A stretch of DNA of 64,000 nucleotides, taken from Escherichia coli (GTDB taxonomy: Bacteria > Pseudomonadota > Gammaproteobacteria > Enterobacterales > Enterobacteriaceae). The notes below the pieces were generated by a model. That model was not told the DNA's origin, did no database searches, and saw only the letters and a list, made by a program, of their open reading frames with translations. Positions within the stretch are counted from its first letter, which is position 1; each line of letters opens with the position of its first letter. The DNA lies in NCBI RefSeq assembly GCF_003790525.1, contig NZ_CP033635.1, one strand, 5' to 3'. Made by a program: the position numbers and the translations under genes. Below are positions 31,478 to 41,147 of the stretch, piece after piece.

Positions 31478-33757
31478 TTAATTTGATGGCTCTAATTCAA
31501 CAGGAATACTTTTATAGCCAGGAATGCCACTTAATGGATCGTGGTTATCAAGTGTTAGCATGTGATTCGATTCTGGAAAATAGGTCACCAGTGAGCGGTC
31601 AGCCATAGGGTAAATGACCACTTTTAATCTATCCATGCGTCGTGAGCTACGTTTACCGTCTGGCGTGAGTGCAATAAGATTAACTCTTTCGCCGTTTTTT
31701 ACACGGCAAATTTTAGCTTGTTTAGCACTCATAAAGACCACATCTCGTTGACCGAATACACCTCGATAGCGATCATCCATACCATAAATCGTCGTGTTGT
31801 ACTGATCGTGGCTGCGTACTGTCGCCATGACCAGTTTACTGTTAAACGCTGAAGAGGGATCTTCTAACAGCCCTTTGCTGGTAATGAAATTAGCCTTACC
31901 TGACGGCGTCATCCAGCGCCTTTCAGCAGCTGCGTTTATCAGGTGAAAACCACCAGGATGACGGATGCGCTGGTTATAGTCGGCAAACTCTGGCAGCACA
32001 GCTTCAATGTCATTGCGAATGCGATCATAATCTTCCACCAGATACTCCCAGGCTACCACGCTCTGGGGTAGTGCTGCCTGCGCGATTCCCGCGACCACTG
32101 CACACTCTGATTTCAGCATTACACCGGCGGGTTTTAACACACCACGCGAGGCATGAATCATCGACATTGAATCTTCAACGGTTACCGCCTGCGCACCGCT
32201 TTTTTGCATGTCAATCTCGCTACGTCCCAGAACCGGCAGAATATAGCTATGCCGTGCGGTCAGCAGATGAGAGCGGTTAAGCTTAGTGGCTACGTGTACC
32301 GCCAAATCTAATTGCGTTAACGGTACAGCGCTCGCTTCCCGATCTGGCATTGCCAGCGCAAAGTTGCCCCCCATGCAGATCAATGCTCGAGCTTGCCCCG
32401 TACATATTGCTTGCATGCTGGCAATTGCAGCATGTCCAGGTGCATGAGGTGGGGTGAAGCCATAGCGCTCACCCAGGCGATCCAGAAACTCTGCAGACGG
32501 TTTCTCGGTGATACCGACGGTTCGGTCGCCCTGTACATTAGAGTGACCTCGTAGTGGGCAGATACCCGCACCAGGCTTGCCAATGTTACCTTTCATCAAC
32601 AGCAGATTGACCAGTTGCTGTACGTTCTGGGTACCATGTTCGTGCTGAGTGATCCCCATTCCGTAACAGATAATGGTTCGTTCGGCAGCGGCATATGCAT
32701 CAGCAAGTTCGGCGATTTGTGTCTGACTTAGTCCAGATATACGTTCGATATCTTTCCACTCGGAATTGAGCACGTCACGGCGTAGCTCGTCAAAGCCGAC
32801 GGTATGCGTTTGAATAAATTCATCATCCAGCAATGAGGGCCGACCTGCGGCGCTTGCAGCATCATCGCGCTCAATTAACAGGCGCATCATTCCCTTGAGC
32901 AACGCCATATCACCACCAATGCGCACGTTGTAGTAGGCACTGGCCAACTGAGTCTCAGAGTTCGTCAGCATTTCAAACGGGTTTTGCGGTGCGGTAAATC
33001 GCTCCAGGCCACGTTCCTGTAGAGGATTGATGGCGATCATTTTCGCTCCCCGTTTCACTAAAGCGCGCAACGAAGTCAACATGCGAGGGTGGTTTGTACC
33101 AGGGTTATGCCCAATGCAAATGACTAAATCGCATTTCTCAAAGTCTTCCAGCAACACGGTCCCTTTACCTACACCGATACTCGCTGCCAAACCCACACTG
33201 GTCGGTTCATGGCACATGTTGGAGCAGTCGGGGAAGTTATTGCTCCCGTATTCACGGGCAAAAAGCTGATAAAGAAAGGCAGCTTCATTGGAAGTGCGGC
33301 CCGAAGTATAGAATTCAACCTGATTGGGATCACTATAGCTTTGAAGGCGTTCGCCAATTTCGTCGAAAGCTTGTTGCCAGCTTAATGGCTTGTAACAGTC
33401 GCTGACGGCATCATATTTCAAAGGCTGGGTGAGACGCCCCGCAGCCTCAAGCTCGTGATCTCCCCAGGTAAGTAATGATTGAACCGTATTCTCAGCAAAG
33501 AAAGAGGCATTTACCTGCTTATCCGTGACTTCCCAGGCGATTGCTTTTGCGCCGTTTTCACAAATGTCGAATGACGCACTGTGCTTAGGATCTGGCCATG
33601 CACAACCCGGACAGTCAAAGCCCTCTGGCTTATTCATGTCAAACATGGCAATAACATCCTGGCGTATATCCATCTGCTTACGTACTGCATTCGCTACGGA
33701 TTTAACAGCACCCCAACCACCGGCAGCCCCCTGGTAGGATTCAATTTTTTTCTTCAT
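31478..33757 (-). CDS. ydeP: Molybdopterin oxidoreductase (formate-dehydrogenase-like) YdeP, acid resistance
   Basis: 759-aa ORF; N-terminal Cys cluster (CPGCAWPDP ... C), molybdopterin oxidoreductase family. Confidence 0.9.
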
Positions 33758-34005
33758 CTACTTATCCTGTGTCGAAATGAATTATTAGGATTTGAAATAG
33801 CGATGATGCACAGTATATACAAAGGGATTATCGTCAATATGGATATATAAGAGTAGGGGACTACTCTCTTTCTATTTTTAATCTATTATCGTTAAATAAT
33901 AGAATGGTATAAATACGATAAGTTAAGCATCATCTCTCATAGTGTTTAAATTAACATGTTTTTCAATATAAAAAATAAGACTCTGGCGTTAATTGTGCGC
34001 GGATT

Positions 34006-34023
34006 TTCTTACAGGTGTAGGAT
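34006..34023. promoter_or_regulatory. EvgA-box-like 18-bp palindrome upstream of ydeP
   Basis: TTCTTACA-GG-TGTAGGAT, the same half-site arrangement as the safA copy; about 250 bp upstream of the ydeP ATG. Confidence 0.5.
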
Positions 34024-34095
34024 AATAGCCTTCACAAAATAATTATCCGCGCAATTTTCGCGAATGGAGCGCATAGACTAAGGTCAAAATCACAA

Positions 34096-35010
34096 TTATT
34101 CATAGATAAAAGTGACACCAATGACTGACTGGACGGTTCCGGCTGCAACCTTGTTTCCTGTTTGTCCATAGGTTGCGCTTAAACCCAGAGGTACTTTGCT
34201 TTTATTTACTGTCCCCAGGGAGACGTTTTCTCCCGTAGCCAGTATTTTTCCATTACGCATCAGAGAGACACCCACTCCCGATGCTTTTGTTGCATCTGGT
34301 GCTGTGTTAGCAAACACTTGTCTGGCACTGTCAGTGGTAGCACCCGAAAGATAAAATGAGAGCTTTTGTTCACTTGAGCAATATACGCCAAGGGGGATTT
34401 CTGCGCTTCCAGGAAAGTCCGGGAGATTCACATTGACATTACGACTATCAACGGTGCAGCCGCCTGTTGGCATAACAACACTGTTATTTGAAATAATATT
34501 CCACGTAAAATTACGCGGATTTCCGCTTCCTAACGTGGCAATTTTATACATATGAATACGGGCAATAACTTCCCCGGCTTTTATGACAACTCCACCGGCC
34601 GCACCGACTGGGGTAATATAGAGTTTTAACGGTAATGGCATCGGTGTCTTATCACCAATATCTAATACATTAGTATTTGTCGTCAACGGGAAGGGGTAGG
34701 TCACATTATTCCAGTACAGCGATCCTTTATATGACTGTAGAGAGCCTGCGAAAGCTGATCCTTGTACCAGGTTTATATGATCAGTGTCGTACCAGCCGCC
34801 GTAATCATTCCAGCAACTTATATGCTGAGACAAGTCTACAACCAGATTCTGGCCCGGTTGTATTACAGGGTCGAGATTAACATAAACAGAGGTTGTACCT
34901 GCTCCAATACTTGACCCGCCATCGACATTACAACTGAAGGCAAAAACTTTGCCTGCCATTAATAGAAGATAAATACCGAACAGAAGCTTCATACTTATTG
35001 TTTTACCCAT
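34096..35010 (-). CDS. ydeQ: FimH-like two-domain fimbrial tip adhesin (F9/Fml-type), YdeQ
   Basis: 304-aa ORF with signal peptide; strongly FimH-like by recalled motifs ([24 protein letters not shown] ... NLVVDLS ... [13 protein letters not shown] ... C-terminal VIGVTFIYE donor-strand-complemented pilin domain). Confidence 0.9.
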
Positions 35011-35069
35011 GATATATCCTAAGATTAAAAAATTGATTTAAAAAGGAGGCTAAGAAAATCGAATCGACG

Positions 35070-35573
35070 TTATTGCCAGGTGTAGATCACATTGATTAGC
35101 GCCTCGATCGTTCCCTGGCTTGCGTTTCCATTCACCGTGATAGCTCTTGCCTTAAGTGGAAACTGTGCATTACGAGTGATCTCATCAACAATAACCGTTT
35201 TGCTATCACCATTTTTTAACGTCGCATCCTGGTCATCCCTTAGCTCTATCTGAATATTTTCGGCAGTACCTTCATTTTTGTAATAACCCGTATTGTCAGT
35301 TGAACCTGTCACGATTGCCGTCACTGCACTTGTTTCAACCGGACAATCGGTTAATGACAAAGTAATATTGTGCCAGCCTGATGCAGAACCAGGTTGTTGC
35401 AGATTGCGCGTATAAAGATCCCCGAGATTAACGTTAGCTTCTTTGGTTTGAATAGTGCAGGGTTTAGCGACTACCCGACCAATAACAGTGATAGTGACAT
35501 CGGCGGCCTGGAGAGTTGCTGTGAATAACGCGCAAAACGTAGCTAACAGGAACCTCTTGTGAAGTCTTTTCAT
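35070..35573 (-). CDS. ydeR: Fimbrial minor subunit (FimG-like), YdeR
   Basis: 167-aa ORF with signal peptide and pilin-like C-terminus; position between adhesin and ydeS as in type 1 pili. Confidence 0.85.
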   Translation of the reverse strand: MKRLHKRFLLATFCALFTATLQAADVTITVIGRVVAKPCTIQTKEANVNLGDLYTRNLQQPGSASGWHNITLSLTDCPVETSAVTAIVTGSTDNTGYYKNEGTAENIQIELRDDQDATLKNGDSKTVIVDEITRNAQFPLKARAITVNGNASQGTIEALINVIYTWQ

Positions 35574-35585
35574 ATCTGACTCTGA

Positions 35586-36116
35586 TTATTGAAATTCAAG
35601 GGTAAAGGTTGCCGAAGCGCTCACCAGTCCAGGATTGACGGACTTCTGAGTTGACTTCAAACGAGCGGAGTAAGGCAAAATATTGTTCTGTTCTGGTACC
35701 AATGGGATCCACTGCATCCCGGCATGAAGGTCATTCAATTTCACCGGACGCATATTTCCGTCCAGTATTTCTATACCCAAACCGGAGGCCGTATTGCTTC
35801 CTTCATCCAGTTTCAACAGAGTATTATTTTCTGCATCCTCAATACCGTTAAATGCAACCCGAACTCCCGTTGTCCCTTTGCTGCATTCACTTAATGTAAT
35901 CTGAAAAGGGACGGCTGGACTTGTGCTACCGGTCGTTGGAAATTGTCTGGCACTGTTTTTTTGGAGATCTACGGTAAAATTAAGCGAATCCGATGAGACT
36001 GTGCAGCCATAATCGAGAACGCGCCCGCTAATTTTAATAACGCTATCTGCGGATAAAGCAGAATAGGTGGTTAACCCCAGACATAAACCGAGGAAAATAA
36101 CGTTATTGTATTTCAT
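35586..36116 (-). CDS. ydeS: Fimbrial minor subunit (FimF-like), YdeS
   Basis: 176-aa ORF with signal peptide; pilin fold motifs; 12-bp spacing to ydeR. Confidence 0.85.
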   Translation of the reverse strand: MKYNNVIFLGLCLGLTTYSALSADSVIKISGRVLDYGCTVSSDSLNFTVDLQKNSARQFPTTGSTSPAVPFQITLSECSKGTTGVRVAFNGIEDAENNTLLKLDEGSNTASGLGIEILDGNMRPVKLNDLHAGMQWIPLVPEQNNILPYSARLKSTQKSVNPGLVSASATFTLEFQ

Positions 36117-36129
36117 AATCTATTGTTCC

Positions 36130-38781
36130 TTAGCGACAGATTGCTGTCTGCTGGTTCAGCAAGGTTCCAGGAGAGACTGCAGGAAGCTTGTAATCGACAA
36201 TACAGTTTGAGTTTTTATCATTGCCCCATGAAACCTGTAATTTCCCTGACTGTGGAAGTCCAGTCAGATAAACCTGACCATTTTCCGCGACAATGCTGCC
36301 ATTTTTATTCTCTCCGTGAGTGACAATTGCACCGAATGGAACGCTTTTATTACCGTACTTCAACGTCATTAATACTTTCCCGCCGATTTGTGCATTAAAT
36401 GTTGCTCTGGCAATAGCACCGTGAGTTGGGATGACAGTGACTACGGTTTCATCCAGTTCAACATTATCTGCAAGGGAATTCGCGTTAAGAGCGACACGAT
36501 TTTCTCTATATTCTGTCGCAAATGGTAATATGGCATAGCCACGCCAGTCGGTATGAATTCCGGTCTGGTTCTCTATTTTGACATTATCAGCGCCAGGAGC
36601 CTTAACCAGAACCATTGTGTCGCCCAGTGGCTGTCCAAAGGTGATGCCATCAGCATGAGCAATAATGCCACCACTCATTCCGTAATAAATCTGGCTGCTG
36701 TCACCACTCCGACTGTAACCGATATTCGTATTACCGTAAGCTCCACGATAATTAAGAGAACTGTAACCACTGGTGCCAGACGATGTATTACCCCCGTGGG
36801 TGTTACCGACCTGAACACTATAATTCAGGTTATTATCCGGCAGCAGAGTGCCATAAACCCCTGATAGGTTGGTCATGCCGCCTTTCAAATCGTTTGACAT
36901 ACTGTAACTGGCGTTTGAGTTACGAAATGCCGACTGACTGTCTGTACGCATCCAATGACTGAAGGGAACATTAAGCGTAAAAGCAAGTAAATGATCCCGA
37001 TCGTTTTGCCATATATTATTGGAATAGCTGTAATTCAGCGAAGTCGTAATATCACTAAACGGCACATTTAATCCAAATGATATTTGCTGGTCGCTGCGTG
37101 ACGTGTTCCAGTAACTTTGGCGACTGGCACTGAAAAATGTCGTACCGTAATTTCCAAGCTGCTGAGAGATGCTTATTTGTTCCTGACCACGCTTACTGTA
37201 GAACAGATTAAAATAATCAATAAATTGTGTCTGCTCATTGCTGTCTCCGGTAGGAGGCTTGACGGTGTAACCACTCATTCGACTGTAGGCACTGTCGGAT
37301 AAGTTATAAAAACCTTGCGTAGAATAGCGATATCCTGCGACCTGGATATTGGTTCCCGTCTGGTAGAAGGATTTGCTGTAGACGGATTTAATCGATTGCC
37401 CGCTGTGACGGGTGCCATCTGCAAGTGTCGTATTGGCCTGCGTGATATCGAAAGAAAAGGCACCAAAAAGTCCTAAATCTTTACCAATACCAAGGTTGAA
37501 GGCCTGATAATCTTCTGCAATTTGCATTCCGCCATAAGGTGTCCAGTTTCCTTCCAGTCCATGCATCAAGCTACCTTGTATGAACTTGGGGGAGCTTTGC
37601 AGGTTATTTCCACTACGATATTCCCCCATGGCAAGCGCATAACGCGTATATCCAGCACGTTGGAGAACCGGAACAGACGAATAAGGAACATATAATGTCT
37701 GAATACTGCCGTCTGCCTCTTTTATGGTTACTTGCAGATCACCACCATTGGCCGCAGAGTTGATATCATCAATAGTAAAAGGGCCGGGTGGGACAGTAGT
37801 CTGATAAACATCGTATCCATTCTGTTTTACACTCACTTGTGCGGTGCTGCGGGCAATACCATGAATCACCGGAGCGAAACCATGTTGGCTATCGGGCAAC
37901 ATCGCTTCTGTTGAATTTATTTTGAGGCCACGAAAGTTCACACTATCAAAAATATCGCCATCGGTATAACTATCACCTACCGTTAAGCGTGAGCGTAAGG
38001 GAATAATGTCACGTTCAGCCGACGTATTGATATGCTGCCATTTATTGCTGTCAGATGAATTGCTACTCCCACTGTTATAACTCCACGTTGAGTTATCGCG
38101 CAGTCGCCAACTACCAATGTTGATGCCACTCTGTAAATTCAAATATGCATAGTTGGATTTTCCTGCATTATGGTTGCCACGATTATTAATAGAATTACCA
38201 TTAAAACTATAGTTTAGTAGCCCAGCATTTATTCCTTCTTCCCACAGATCCGGAGAAACATAGCCGCGAGCCATTCTGCCAACATAAATTTGCGGAACGG
38301 AGAGTGATAGATGTTGCTGACCAACATTAAACTCAGATGATGCGTCAGCCAAACGATCCCGAAGTGGTGTGCATGCGCTGTTGTCCGACACATGTTTTTC
38401 TGCCGAATGTTCCTTATTGTCTAATAATGCTGATTTTTTTATGCCAAGACTGACAAGAAGGTCTGTACTCAGGCATGGGATGAGATCTGCATTATTATCA
38501 TCTGCAATAAAAGTAATATCCCGACTAGTCATAAATTCGTCGTTCAAATAAATGTCGACCCGATATGTACCAGGTGGTGCCTCGCGTCCCTTAGTAAAGG
38601 CGGATAAATCGACAGATTCAGCAAGATCATTGCTTAAAAACCGTGGATTAAAATAAAACTCTGCGTCAACGGGAAATACCGCAGTTGCTAAGCCAAGGGC
38701 AATGGTAAGCCGTGCAAAGCGAGGCAGTAGTAACACCTGATGCATACGATATGCCTTAAATGCGGCACGAAAGGCTGTCAT
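36130..38781 (-). CDS. ydeT: Outer-membrane fimbrial usher (FimD family), apparently full length
   Basis: 883-aa uninterrupted ORF; FimD-like motifs (FYFNPRFL, GTYRVDIYLN, LLNYSFNGN, C-terminal Cys pair). Start may be the first ATG (38781) or the in-frame ATG 12 codons downstream. In K-12 I recall ydeT as a truncated fragment. Confidence 0.85.
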   Translation of the reverse strand: MTAFRAAFKAYRMHQVLLLPRFARLTIALGLATAVFPVDAEFYFNPRFLSNDLAESVDLSAFTKGREAPPGTYRVDIYLNDEFMTSRDITFIADDNNADLIPCLSTDLLVSLGIKKSALLDNKEHSAEKHVSDNSACTPLRDRLADASSEFNVGQQHLSLSVPQIYVGRMARGYVSPDLWEEGINAGLLNYSFNGNSINNRGNHNAGKSNYAYLNLQSGINIGSWRLRDNSTWSYNSGSSNSSDSNKWQHINTSAERDIIPLRSRLTVGDSYTDGDIFDSVNFRGLKINSTEAMLPDSQHGFAPVIHGIARSTAQVSVKQNGYDVYQTTVPPGPFTIDDINSAANGGDLQVTIKEADGSIQTLYVPYSSVPVLQRAGYTRYALAMGEYRSGNNLQSSPKFIQGSLMHGLEGNWTPYGGMQIAEDYQAFNLGIGKDLGLFGAFSFDITQANTTLADGTRHSGQSIKSVYSKSFYQTGTNIQVAGYRYSTQGFYNLSDSAYSRMSGYTVKPPTGDSNEQTQFIDYFNLFYSKRGQEQISISQQLGNYGTTFFSASRQSYWNTSRSDQQISFGLNVPFSDITTSLNYSYSNNIWQNDRDHLLAFTLNVPFSHWMRTDSQSAFRNSNASYSMSNDLKGGMTNLSGVYGTLLPDNNLNYSVQVGNTHGGNTSSGTSGYSSLNYRGAYGNTNIGYSRSGDSSQIYYGMSGGIIAHADGITFGQPLGDTMVLVKAPGADNVKIENQTGIHTDWRGYAILPFATEYRENRVALNANSLADNVELDETVVTVIPTHGAIARATFNAQIGGKVLMTLKYGNKSVPFGAIVTHGENKNGSIVAENGQVYLTGLPQSGKLQVSWGNDKNSNCIVDYKLPAVSPGTLLNQQTAICR

Positions 38782-38822
38782 TATTAATTCCGATTGAGTT
38801 TATTATTAATTAGGTCACTGGC

Positions 38823-39542
38823 TTACTGCATGGTTGCCTTAATACGCGGAGTTAATGCACCGTAATCATTGATCGTCTGAAAACTGATATCCCCGGTTGC
38901 AGCATGCGGGATATCCACCGATACTTCACCTTTTGGCGGCACCATGGTGTTTGGGAGATTGCTATTTCCTGCTTTCATATTTGTTACGGTAATGAAGTAG
39001 GGCGTTGGATTAATAAGAGTGAGTTTGCTACCGCTGCGACGAAACCGAAGCATTGCTGGCGCTTCTTCAGGTGCCATTGCCAGGTTCGTCGGGCGATAAA
39101 ACATTTTTATGCGGCTAATAATTGCCAGCTGTAATGTATTCTCATTCTTCTGGTCTTTTTCCATAGCAGGAATAGCTTTAACATTAACCCAAAACAGGCT
39201 TTCACGGTCGCCTGGTAACTGATGATTAGTGGCGTTGATTATCCGAAGCGTATTCTCTTTTTTACCTTGCATGGAAAAAAGCGGTGGGGTAATGACAAAC
39301 TGGGTGTCTTTTTGGTCACCTGCATTTTCTATCCATGACTGAATGAGATAGACACTGGCAGGATCATTATTCGTGACAGGCAATAAAACCTGTTTCTGGT
39401 TTGCCGGATAAATTACCCGCGTCGCACCAAGTGCGACAGCTGCGTTGGCAATGGTGCTATGGCAAGCAAAGAGCAATAAAAGTAACACTGTCGCCATAAA
39501 GGAAATAGAGTAGGGGATACGCGTAGTTTGCATCTGATGCAT
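38823..39542 (-). CDS. Periplasmic fimbrial chaperone (FimC/PapD family)
   Basis: 239-aa ORF; FimC-like core (GATRVIYPANQKQ ... TNNDPASVYLIQSWIEN ... ENTLQLAIISRIKMFYRP ... LTLINPTPYFITVT). Start among the first three in-frame ATGs is uncertain. Confidence 0.85.
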   Translation of the reverse strand: MHQMQTTRIPYSISFMATVLLLLLFACHSTIANAAVALGATRVIYPANQKQVLLPVTNNDPASVYLIQSWIENAGDQKDTQFVITPPLFSMQGKKENTLRIINATNHQLPGDRESLFWVNVKAIPAMEKDQKNENTLQLAIISRIKMFYRPTNLAMAPEEAPAMLRFRRSGSKLTLINPTPYFITVTNMKAGNSNLPNTMVPPKGEVSVDIPHAATGDISFQTINDYGALTPRIKATMQ

Positions 39543-39895
39543 TCTCCATGTGTTAAGAGGATAAGCGGGAAAACCGTTACATCAGACAATCAGTAAATGT
39601 TGCTAATACATTGGCGACTCGCCGGGTTTCCAGACTTAATGCGTTTGTAATAAATGTTGGTTCTCTTTTAATAGGAAAACCTTGCTACAAAGTAAATATT
39701 TTAAATAACAGTAAGTTTAACTACTGTTGTTTATTGATCGTTTAGATATTATGTGATTTTTTCATACCGCTCCAAAACACAAACTATTCCTCATTAATAA
39801 TGAGATGAGCATTGGTGAATTGCTCGGGTGTGCGTAGCCATGCCACACACACCCTGTTTCAATTTCAGATGACGTATAGCCACCTTAAGATTGAA

Positions 39896-40459
39896 TTATA
39901 GATATTGAACTTTGAACGTCGCATCAGCGTTTGCAGTACCAGCTACTGACTGCCCGAGAGCAATATAACGAGCCTGGAATGGCAGTATATTCGTGCCATC
40001 AATCAAGTCGGTTTTAGCGCTAAAAGTGGCACCATCAAGTATTAATACCTCCCCCGTACGGTCCAAAATTTGAATACCGACATTTTGGGCAGAGCCTGCC
40101 GCTGAACTCTGCAGCGCTAAGGTATCGTCATTACTGGTGACAGTAGTACCCAGGAATGCAACAGCTGCATTACTGGAAACATTGGTATCACAATCATTCA
40201 GCTTGATATTGAAGCCAACGGCGGAGCTGAGGTCACCTGCTTTAGCCAGGCGAGAAGAACGGACCTGACCCAGCTCAACCGTTTGGTTCATTGATTCTGA
40301 ATCAATCGCACAAGCGGCATTTACCACTTCACCTTTAAAATGAATAACACCGCCATTAACAGTGGTCGTTACTGATTCATCACCCTCGGCTGCGCTTACC
40401 GCAGCAGACGACATCGCCAACACAGAAACGACAATCATACCGACATGTTTGAGTTTCAT
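39896..40459 (-). CDS. Major fimbrial subunit (FimA-like, F9/Fml-type)
   Basis: ORF 39896..40507 trimmed to ATG at 40457-40459 ([23 protein letters not shown] signal peptide, 187 aa) preceded by a GGAGA RBS; pilin Cys pair and C-terminal donor-strand motif ATFKVQYL. Confidence 0.8.
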
Positions 40460-40892
40460 AATTCTCCAAAATTTATATTTAAGTAGCTGAATAAAGAAAG
40501 TTAACAATCAAGTCATTCTGTTATTGCTTATAAAACAAGAATCATTCTTGATGGGATATTGCCCTGAGAATATAGTTTCCAGGGTTATTACATTTCACGA
40601 AGAACGATAATATCTTTAAATTACAAGGACACCTAATCACAACAAGTTTATTGCAGCACTTGTTGTAGAGAGTATTTGCAAAGACATTTTATGTCGCTAA
40701 ATAACATGACGATTTCATTATGCATGTTATTTATAAACCGTGACTAAACAGAATATTATTGCGGACAAGGGAAGTGTCAGGAAAGGTCAAGAGCGACCAA
40801 TGGTTTATATGGCTATAAATAATTAGCTATAGTTAATGTTTGCCTGGTGTAACTAACACGGAATTGCTCTAAACAGATAAGTGCACGGTTTA

Positions 40893-41147
40893 TTAAAGCT
40901 GACCGACAGACTTTCTTAACCTGGTAATATCTCTCTTAGGTGACTCTCCAAACATCCGCGAATATTCCCGACAGAAATGGGATAAGCTTTCGTAACCGAC
41001 AGCATAGGCTGCAGTGGTGACATCGTAATGTTCATTCAGCATCAGTCGCCTGGCTTCATTGAGGCGTAGCCATTTCTGATACCGGAGTGGACTCATTCCC
41101 GCAAGCTGTCTGAAGTGTTGATGGAAAGAGGGGGTGTTCATTTGCAC
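40893..41147 (-). pseudogene. yneL: AraC-family regulator remnant (C-terminal HTH domain only)
   Basis: 84-codon ORF (GTG start in the ORF track) that is AraC-type HTH only (MSPLRYQKWLRLNEARRLML ... GYESLSHFCREYSRMFGESPKR); an in-frame TGA lies 8 codons upstream, so the ligand-binding N-terminal domain is absent. Confidence 0.6.

Follow-up and report, generated by a model that had tools for sequence, protein, structure and literature searches.

Escherichia coli K-12 carries only the remnant of a chaperone-usher operon next to ydeP. The earlier note on the stretch analyzed here (the window, 64,000 nucleotides of E. coli contig NZ_CP033635.1) claimed that it encodes six consecutive intact minus-strand genes of the F9/Fml type. 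This raises the question of whether the locus is a complete pilus operon and how its K-12 counterpart relates to it. The region very probably represents the ancestral, intact state of the chromosomal F9 (Fml or yde) pilus operon of E. coli, a gamma-1, type 1-like chaperone-usher system. The features of the locus are listed in Table 1.

Table 1. Features of the F9 locus in window coordinates
Feature	Position	Strand	Size	Description
ydeP	31478-33757			Adjoins the F9 operon
Terminator-like hairpin and T-run	34045..34065	-		7-bp stem, 4 GC pairs, T-rich tail; consensus match only
Six-gene operon	34096-40459	-		FimA-like major subunit, chaperone, usher, FimF-like and FimG-like minor subunits, two-domain adhesin
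fmlH/ydeQ, tip adhesin	34096..35010	-	304 aa	Signal peptide 1-24, lectin domain 25-184, pilin domain
ydeR-type minor subunit, FimG-like	35070..35573	-	167 aa	Pfam Fimbrial
ydeS-type minor subunit, FimF-like	35586..36116	-	176 aa	Pfam Fimbrial, 3e-22
Outer-membrane usher	36130..38781	-	883 aa	PapC_N, Usher, PapC_C
Segment deleted in K-12	37357..40637		3,281 bp	BLAST junctions, alignment, junction sequence
Periplasmic chaperone	38823..39533	-	236 aa	PapD_N, PapD_C
AT-rich spacer, major subunit to chaperone	39534..39895	-	362 bp	
GC-rich hairpin in fmlA 3' UTR	39826..39854	-		13-bp stem, 3-nt loop, no U-tract
fmlA, major pilin	39896..40459	-	187 aa	Pfam Fimbrial, 6e-31
5' UTR	40460..40710	-	251 nt	9-bp hairpin at 40639-40666 (inverted repeat I7)
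Perfect 11-nt inverted repeat (I2)	40698..40733			TAAATAACATG-N14-CATGTTATTTA; brackets -10 hexamer and transcription start
F9 promoter	40717..40746	-		-35 TAGTCA (40746-40741), 18-bp spacer, -10 CATAAT (40722-40717)

None of the six open reading frames contains an internal stop codon. Their products show complete coverage of the respective Pfam profiles and are also full length by comparison with the solved structures of FimA, FimC, FimD, and FimH; the major pilin, chaperone, and usher align end to end with FimA, FimC, and FimD, respectively. Protein alignment of the kind proposed in the earlier note, against the F9 proteins of enterohemorrhagic E. coli (EHEC) O157:H7 and the Fml proteins of uropathogenic E. 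coli (UPEC), together with those of ST131, shows 97 to 100% identity without gaps, which bears out the six intact genes. The CFT073 operon in this comparison (c1931-c1936) is experimentally functional. The number of substitutions per protein relative to O157:H7 and CFT073 ranges from 0 to 26, the latter in the usher compared with that of CFT073. Intact reading frames of this kind are compatible with a deleterious missense change, for example, in the usher. PGAP calls all six genes intact on 100%-identical DNA.

The usher is indeed the full-length, 883-codon protein that had been described: all three of its domains show complete profile coverage, the Usher domain matches its Pfam profile from end to end (positions 1-549 of 549, 5e-200), and residues 42-883 align with residues 2-833 of mature FimD. 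Neither the usher nor the chaperone is truncated relative to FimD and FimC. The most likely start of the chaperone is at 39533; the alternative ATG at 39542 would yield a 239-aa protein. The chaperone retains the GATRVIYP and NVKAIP motifs of FimC, which contain Arg8 and Lys112, the residues that anchor the subunits. FmlA is 100% identical to O157:H7 WP_001296758.1. Its translation almost certainly starts at the ATG at 40459 and not at the TTG at 40507, because GGAG is found 7 nt upstream of this ATG and PGAP uses the same start on identical DNA. The non-coding region upstream of fmlA (40460-40892) is therefore 433 bp long and not the 385-bp leader (40508..40892) given earlier.

The adhesin combines a FimH_man-bind domain (Pfam, 6e-78) with a pilin domain. 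Its residues 25-184 are identical in 160 of 160 positions to the crystallized FmlH (PDB 6AOW), and all six ligand-contact residues of the pocket, F1, Y46, D53, K132, N140, and R142, as named in PMC5866590, are present. Thus, judged by its sequence, this is a galactoside-binding lectin domain of the FmlH type. The two minor subunits are 98 to 100% (ydeR type) and 98 to 99% (ydeS type) identical to their orthologues, those of the former being from O157, CFT073, and K-12. A terminator-like hairpin with a T-run 31 nt past the adhesin stop codon is a probable end of the operon, going by its match to the consensus. From the chaperone to the adhesin, the five genes are separated by gaps of only 12 to 59 nt.

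The gene order, major pilin, chaperone, usher, two minor pilins, and adhesin, without fimI, is the one described for F9 in PMC3966885. Like F9 of EHEC O157:H7 and Fml of UPEC strains CFT073 and UTI89, the operon is located between ydeP and a yneL remnant, downstream of the variable yneL/hipBA region. This is the site used throughout E. coli, with synteny at ydeP common to K-12, O157, ST131, CFT073, SMS-3-5, and KFu014. Orthology of the six proteins, the identical FmlH lectin domain, the promoter, the transcription start with its 251-nt leader, and the hairpin after fmlA are likewise shared with O157:H7, CFT073, and UTI89. Within the operon, only allelic differences from O157:H7 and CFT073 are found, such as the -35 hexamer TAGTCA in place of TAGTCG. 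In contrast, the DNA upstream of the operon differs from that of O157:H7 and CFT073: it contains an AraC-type remnant and a 3'-truncated autotransporter and lacks hipBA.

Type 1 pili (fimAICDFGH) have the same architecture and mechanism, with protein identities of 70% for FimA, 60% for FimC, 57% for FimD, 45% for FimF, 57% for FimG (that of K-12), and 47% for FimH. However, F9 has neither fimI nor a detectable remnant of it and lacks the fimB/fimE recombinases and the fimS switch, and its adhesin has a galactoside-binding pocket (K132 and R142) instead of the mannose pocket of type 1 pili.

The statement in the earlier note that K-12 has only ydeQ, ydeR, ydeS, and a truncated ydeT is confirmed by direct comparison, and the deletion could be mapped. 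It extends from the 5' UTR, most of which is lost, across the major subunit and the chaperone and takes in usher codons 1-475, leaving K-12 with ydeQ, ydeR (labelled fimG), ydeS (labelled fimF), and a 5'-truncated ydeT that matches only usher residues 476-883. Loss of this segment (37357-40637) therefore leaves K-12 without the major pilin, the chaperone, and the N-terminal half of the usher. What is left closely resembles the present strain: ydeQ, ydeR, and ydeS are 97 to 99% identical, the C-terminal 408 residues of the usher are 98% identical, and the promoter is kept together with 73 nt at the start of the 5' UTR. The exact junction, which may be new, has microhomology of at most 2 nt and is also present in non-laboratory strains.

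The promoter matches the published CFT073 promoter (TAGTCG/CATAAT, 18 bp), and conservation extends over five lineages, K-12 among them. In CFT073, 5' RACE placed the transcription start at a G 251 nt upstream of the ATG (PMC3966885), which, read off the sequence, corresponds to window position 40710; the 5' UTR folds with a z-score of -3.1. Transcription from this sigma-70 promoter would thus start at 40710 and yield a single polycistronic mRNA for six Sec-exported proteins. The CFT073 promoter is repressed by H-NS at 37 C and expressed at low temperature, with relief at about 20 C (PMC3966885), and promoter identity suggests the same silencing and relief here. By the type 1 paradigm, each pilin would be capped by the chaperone via donor-strand complementation and polymerized by the usher via donor-strand exchange, in the order FmlH tip, FimG-like adaptor, FimF-like adaptor, and many FmlA rod subunits. 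Since its lectin domain is identical to that of the crystallized, ligand-bound protein, FmlH is expected to bind terminal galactosides, namely, Gal(beta1-3)GalNAc (TF antigen) and Gal(beta1-3)GlcNAc. Glycan binding of F9 has been reported in PMC3966885, and TF-antigen binding and a role in urinary tract infection have been reported in PMC5866590.

The finding is correct but ordinary: a well-studied operon, complete here as in roughly two of every three E. coli sequenced (3,567 of the 5,426 complete genomes carry at least 80% of it). It adds little to general biology, because the operon, its distribution, promoter, H-NS control, receptor, and K-12 deletion have already been published. Identical intact copies are found elsewhere, for example, in KFu014. 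IS3 or IS2 insertions at several different sites are present in the operon in 13 of 24 near-identical (about 100%) genomes, with ydeS hit in M172-1, ydeR hit at its 3' end in SMS-3-5, and the usher hit in further strains. Because of these recurrent insertions, which may be a new observation, the operon looks dispensable in this lineage. Together with the absence of most of the operon from about one third of complete genomes, its disruption in all phylogroup A strains examined in PMC3966885, and the H-NS repression at 37 C, they fit an operon that is intact on paper but cryptic, decaying, silenced by H-NS in essentially all conditions, and contributing nothing, its intactness meaning merely that no insertion sequence has arrived yet. 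We consider this rather unlikely, as constraint on the proteins is visible (a distant UPEC strain has the identical lectin domain, and proteins from different phylogroups share 97 to 100% identity with zero indels) and near-identical operons function, producing pili at 20 C and acting in biofilm, calf colonization, and mouse urinary tract infection (PMC3966885 and PMC5866590). As an intact F9 operon, the locus, as far as the genes alone tell, equips the strain to make F9/Fml pili, which have been implicated in low-temperature biofilm, binding to plant and bovine gut surfaces, and chronic colonization of the urinary tract and kidney. The lectin domain of this FmlH is that of the protein targeted by galactoside inhibitors and vaccines.

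The spacer between fmlA and the chaperone gene measures 362 bp from the chaperone start at 39533 and 353 bp from the ATG at 39542; the 353-bp version served as the query in the genome-wide spacer and tblastn/blastn searches. It is 94 to 100% identical in 3,571 genomes, and the 362-bp spacer contains no open reading frames of 60 aa or more. A fimI remnant is rejected: the best E values from tblastn with the full set of Fim and F9 proteins were 0.4 to 2, no different from the unrelated control YdeP. The stem-loop noted earlier within this spacer is real and stronger than described. It begins 39 nt past the fmlA stop codon, and its 101-nt context folds at -40.6 kcal/mol (z = -6.6). All 29 positions are invariant in four lineages, and the hairpin with its 10-nt flanks is found in one copy in each of 3,590 genomes. 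The most divergent copy has one change, which disrupts a wobble pair; this sole variant is uncompensated, and sequences within E. coli vary too little to reveal covariation. Variable columns make up 1 of 29 in the hairpin versus 28 of 98 in the flanks (Fisher p = 0.0045). A search of genome contigs with FmlH for orthologues in other species that might show covariation yielded one locus, an E. coli-like contig binned in a Nanosynbacter MAG, which does not extend to the hairpin.

The stem is followed by GAGCAAUUCACC; lacking a U-tract directly after the stem, the hairpin is therefore not a canonical intrinsic terminator, and the terminator scan does not list it. It would most likely act as a barrier to 3'-5' decay or as a partial block to transcription, either of which might raise the ratio of the major pilin to the assembly machinery, making a role in subunit stoichiometry a reasonable idea.

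Alternatively, the hairpin might be the core of a 3' UTR-derived small RNA that corresponds in F9 to FimR2, an RNA released by RNase E from the fimA-fimI spacer of the type 1 operon (PMC9723502). The place is similar, immediately downstream of the major-pilin gene (the annotated FimR2 lies 11 nt past the fimA stop), and so is the hairpin core; an ACGTCAT heptamer is found at a similar offset in both (+20 in fim and +23 in F9), and the hairpin is better conserved than its flanks. An AU-rich single-stranded stretch, GAAAUUGAAA, just precedes the hairpin, and RNase E prefers AU-rich single-stranded RNA. FimR2-like elements are also widespread after fimA-type genes, including those in F9-like operons of other taxa. 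However, apart from the heptamer, the F9 spacer gives no blastn match to the fim locus, the F9 stem has 13 bp versus 5 bp in FimR2, and the literature searched holds no link of F9 to a stem-loop or small RNA. The interaction of FimR2 with CsrA is defined by two GGA motifs (PMC9723502), one in single-stranded RNA and the other in the loop of the hairpin, and no GGA occurs in the F9 3' UTR over its first 100 nt. Among the six available FimR2-like sequences, which align in two registers, two GGA motifs are present in each of K-12 fim, L012, L014, L017, and L019, and L010 has one in the hairpin loop and none in the preceding single-stranded stretch; both are kept in F9-like operons of Morganella and of unassigned metagenome contigs. 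This direct absence of GGA answers the question of FimR2 membership, and a FimR2 counterpart appears quite unlikely. A Rfam scan of positions 33700-41700, with no meaningful match (a chance OxyS hit at E = 0.38), says little on this point, since a control scan of the real FimR2 locus showed that Rfam lacks a FimR2 model. Descent from FimR2 by remodelling, with loss of both GGA motifs and gain of a much stronger stem, is similarly improbable; if true, it could have produced a CsrA-independent 3' UTR small RNA or a dedicated stabilizer of fmlA mRNA, and the hairpin might couple low-temperature F9 expression to other regulons. That the F9 hairpin differs in this way from FimR2-like elements may be a new observation.

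The earlier caution against a fimS-like invertible promoter switch is borne out, and such a switch can be dismissed as hardly credible: the paralogous fim operon uses one and the leader has short inverted repeats, such as the 13-nt pair 40730-40742/40884-40896 (12 of 13 positions, or 92%, complementary), but this pair encloses neither the -10 hexamer nor the transcription start, O157 has a weaker version of its outer arm and B2 strains, whose homology stops at 40857, lack that arm, comparison of leaders across lineages found no conserved inverted repeats flanking the promoter, no fimB/fimE-type or other tyrosine recombinase gene is found among the neighbours (the genes from ydeM to ydeP on one flank, and the yneL remnant, the autotransporter, and lsrK on the opposite flank), and in 3,426 genomes a single collinear same-strand match spans at least 80% of the promoter-leader query.

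The promoter itself is overlaid by the I2 palindrome. A Fur box in this palindrome seems unlikely, with agreement to the consensus, judged by eye, at only about 8 of 19 positions, and the effect of fur on fmlA that PMC7157518 reports may be indirect. Repeats of this length or longer occurred in 9 of 1,000 first-order Markov simulations of the leader, and I2 is kept across lineages, with one change in ST131. This palindrome, possibly a new observation, is a candidate operator.

The operon consists of six consecutive minus-strand reading frames, flanked by ydeP and an AraC-type HTH fragment (see the table below), with no internal stops in any of the six. Usher residues 42 to 883 align with residues 2 to 833 of mature FimD in its solved structure, and the chaperone matches solved FimC over its full length, with the GATRVIYP and NVKAIP motifs present, so neither protein is truncated. 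The major pilin aligns with solved FimA, including the N-terminal donor strand. All six proteins have N termini resembling Sec signal peptides, with predicted cleavage sites that match the positions in their Fim paralogues. The reading frames, Pfam matches, structure alignments, and N termini thus agree with the earlier note, which had described six genes with signal peptides and intact frames. The start of the major pilin, which that note had placed at TTG 40507, is almost certainly ATG 40459 (giving 187 aa), which has a GGAG 7 nt upstream and is the start called by the PGAP annotation pipeline on identical DNA. The most likely start of the chaperone, 39533, is also the PGAP choice.

Features of the F9/Fml region and of loci retrieved for comparison (window positions unless a locus, L0xx, is named)
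Feature	Coordinates	Strand	Details
Six consecutive reading frames	34096-40507	-	ORF listing
Major pilin		-	Pfam Fimbrial (6e-31)
Chaperone		-	Pfam PapD_N, PapD_C
Usher		-	Pfam PapC_N, Usher (5e-200, profile 1-549/549), PapC_C
Two minor pilins		-	Pfam Fimbrial
Adhesin		-	Pfam FimH_man-bind (6e-78), pilin domain
ydeP	31478-33757		Operon neighbour
AraC-type HTH fragment	40893-41147		Operon neighbour, 84 aa
Hairpin in fmlA 3' UTR	39826-39854	-	13-bp stem GGGUGUGUGUGGC / GCUACGCACACCC, 3-nt loop
Transcription start	40710	-	G, exactly 251 nt from ATG 40459
-10 hexamer	40722-40717	-	CATAAT, match to CFT073 promoter
-35 hexamer	40746-40741	-	TAGTCA (TAGTCG in CFT073)
11-nt inverted repeat	40698-40708 / 40723-40733		TAAATAACATG-N14-CATGTTATTTA
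hipBA junction	41474/41475		hipBA missing
Palindrome	41509-41526		18 bp, perfect, TATCCGCGATCGCGGATA
Spacer hairpin	41565-41595		11-bp stem, terminator-like on minus strand
Autotransporter ORF	41658-46538		ECSE_1600 family, 1,626 aa
Six-gene fimI-less operons	L012:2400-8918, L014:2513-8924, L017:1225-7714		Adhesins 57-62% identical to FmlH
FimR2-signature sites	L007:3675-3709, L012:2961-3010, L014:3077-3125, L017:1789-1835, L019:2835-2885, L010:5566-5596		

Alignment with known F9/Fml proteins, which the earlier note had proposed as a check, gives 97 to 100% identity without gaps (98 to 100% for O157:H7 and 97 to 99% for ST131 and CFT073). Adhesin residues 25 to 184 are identical, at 160/160 positions, to the crystallized lectin domain of FmlH (PDB 6AOW and ten further entries), and all six ligand-contact residues reported by Kalas et al. 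(F1, Y46, D53, K132, N140, and R142; PMC5866590) are retained. Judged by these protein identities, the lectin domain, and the contact residues, the operon can be identified as F9/Fml itself, not merely as F9-type, and its interpretation as a complete F9/Fml operon is supported. Production of F9 pili has been demonstrated in CFT073 (PMC3966885).

The annotated gene order ydeO-safA-ydeP-ydeQRS-usher-chaperone-“fimA” is common to O157:H7, ST131, CFT073, SMS-3-5, and other strains. Among the 5,426 complete genomes of E. coli, 5,396 have matches to the 7.4-kb region, and 3,567 carry 80% or more of it at a single location. Several complete genomes, such as KFu014, carry an uninterrupted, 100% identical copy in which PGAP calls six intact genes. 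Among the cryptic fimbrial operons of E. coli, F9 is one of the better characterized, and most strains have it intact; what remains of interest is the hairpin in the fmlA 3' UTR, with its putative role, and the promoter palindrome. Among the 24 complete genomes that are ~100% identical to the region (H86 to H109; loci L002 and L006), 13 have an IS3- or IS2-family insertion inside the operon; the insertion sites differ, lying in the usher, in ydeS, or at the 3' end of ydeR. Repeated knockout of the operon is under way in the SMS-3-5-like lineage.

The statement that K-12 holds only a remnant is borne out by BLAST and alignment: 3,281 bp, window positions 37357 to 40637, are missing. In K-12, the promoter and transcription start survive along with 73 nt of leader, joined to usher codon 476; microhomology at the junction is at most 2 nt. 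The same junction is present in many non-laboratory strains, indicating that the deletion is an old lineage event, in agreement with the report that every phylogroup A strain examined has a disrupted F9 locus (PMC3966885).

In CFT073, transcription starts at a G located 251 nt upstream of the ATG (Wurpel et al.), preceded by the hexamers CATAAT and TAGTCG, 18 bp apart; H-NS binding to this promoter has been demonstrated (PMC3966885). Its counterpart in the window is kept in all five lineages aligned, K-12 among them. A perfect 11-nt inverted repeat brackets both the start site and the -10 hexamer; it persists from one phylogroup to another, and the F9 promoter paper (PMC3966885) makes no mention of it. 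Repeats of at least 11 nt arose in 9 of 1,000 composition-matched simulations (~0.9%), and this one may represent an operator. The leader folds somewhat better than its shuffles (z = -3.1) and has no match in Rfam. A fimS-like invertible switch, which the earlier note had likewise found unsupportable, is rejected: no recombinase genes were found among the annotated neighbours, the sole longer repeat pair in the leader neither encloses the promoter nor is conserved, and in 3,426 genomes a single collinear match spans 80% or more of the promoter-leader query.

The stem-loop noted earlier after the major subunit gene is real, its 101-nt context folding at -40.6 kcal/mol versus -20.4 ± 3.1 for shuffles. 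The hairpin shows no differences among four phylogroups, whereas its flanking sequence does vary. Of its 29 columns, 1 is variable, compared with 28 of the 98 columns directly adjacent (Fisher p = 0.0045); over the whole spacer in four lineages, the counts are 0 of 29 versus 38 of 326 (p = 0.057). Among the copies found, the one departing furthest differs at one position, the U·G wobble. No fimI remnant is detectable in the spacer between the major pilin and chaperone genes. The most economical reading is that the hairpin would serve as a decay barrier or a partial transcription block favouring the major pilin. An arrangement of this kind is recognized in other fimbrial operons.

Another possibility is suggested by FimR2, a small RNA from the fimA 3' UTR of the paralogous type 1 pilus operon, which sits in the fimA-fimI spacer, 11 nt past the fimA stop codon (MG1655 annotation). 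It is excised by RNase E and binds CsrA via a pair of GGA motifs, of which one is single-stranded and the other lies in a hairpin loop (PMC9723502). The F9 hairpin occupies the FimR2 position, yet lacks the defining motifs, as no GGA is present in the first 100 nt of the E. coli F9 major-pilin 3' UTR. Where FimR2-like loci have a short GC hairpin, E. coli F9 has a far stronger stem; only an ACGTCAT heptamer, at a similar offset, is common to the fim and F9 3' UTRs, and the F9 spacer has no blastn similarity to the fim locus. A different 3' UTR-derived product from F9 is possible but unsupported, and a CsrA-sponge role is unlikely because the GGA motifs are missing. The F9 hairpin is not a canonical intrinsic terminator, as no U-tract follows it and it is missing from the output of the terminator scan; nor is it a dispersed repeat, since 3,590 genomes each have a single copy of it with its 10-nt flanks.

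In diverse taxa, fimA-type major-pilin genes are directly followed by the FimR2 signature, which combines a single-stranded GGA with another in the loop of a short GC hairpin. The stems differ in their bases between loci but keep the pairing, and Rfam 15 contains no model for the signature. Four major-pilin 3' UTRs, those of L012, L014, L017, and L019 (the fim locus of Samsonia), have the first GGA at about +15 and the second, in a short GC-hairpin loop, at about +31 to +37. L010 has the loop GGA, and the single-stranded stretch that precedes it contains none.

The retrieved FmlH-like adhesins are 57 to 63% identical to FmlH, closer to it than to FimH, and carry the FmlH-type K132 and R142. 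Those of L012, L014, and L017 belong to six-gene, fimI-less operons on metagenome contigs, and the L012 usher clusters with those of Morganella morganii; in L010, the adhesin gene is separate from a seven-gene fim-type cluster and points away from it. Such six-gene FmlH-type operons outside E. coli temper the claim made in 2014 that only E. coli and Shigella carry f9. A 13-kb contig (JARKOR010000108.1) that encodes a protein with 97% identity to YdeQ/FmlH was deposited under a “Candidatus Nanosynbacter” MAG, almost certainly because the bin was contaminated with E. coli.

Upstream of the operon, the hipBA toxin-antitoxin operon, found there in K-12, ST131, and CFT073, is cleanly missing, so that 1,610 bp of K-12 (hipB and all but ~61 nt of hipA) have no counterpart in the window. 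The autotransporter ORF is ~481 bp short at its 3' end compared with K-12 (junction near 41699) and is labelled “missing C-terminus” by PGAP in identical genomes; its translocator domain is therefore probably defective. The AraC-type fragment, a yneL-like pseudogene retaining only the C-terminal domain, sits immediately upstream of the F9 promoter region. B2 strains are homologous to the window only as far as ~40857, beyond which their DNA is different. Both the 18-bp palindrome and the terminator-like hairpin are located in the spacer that separates the remnants of the autotransporter and AraC-type genes.
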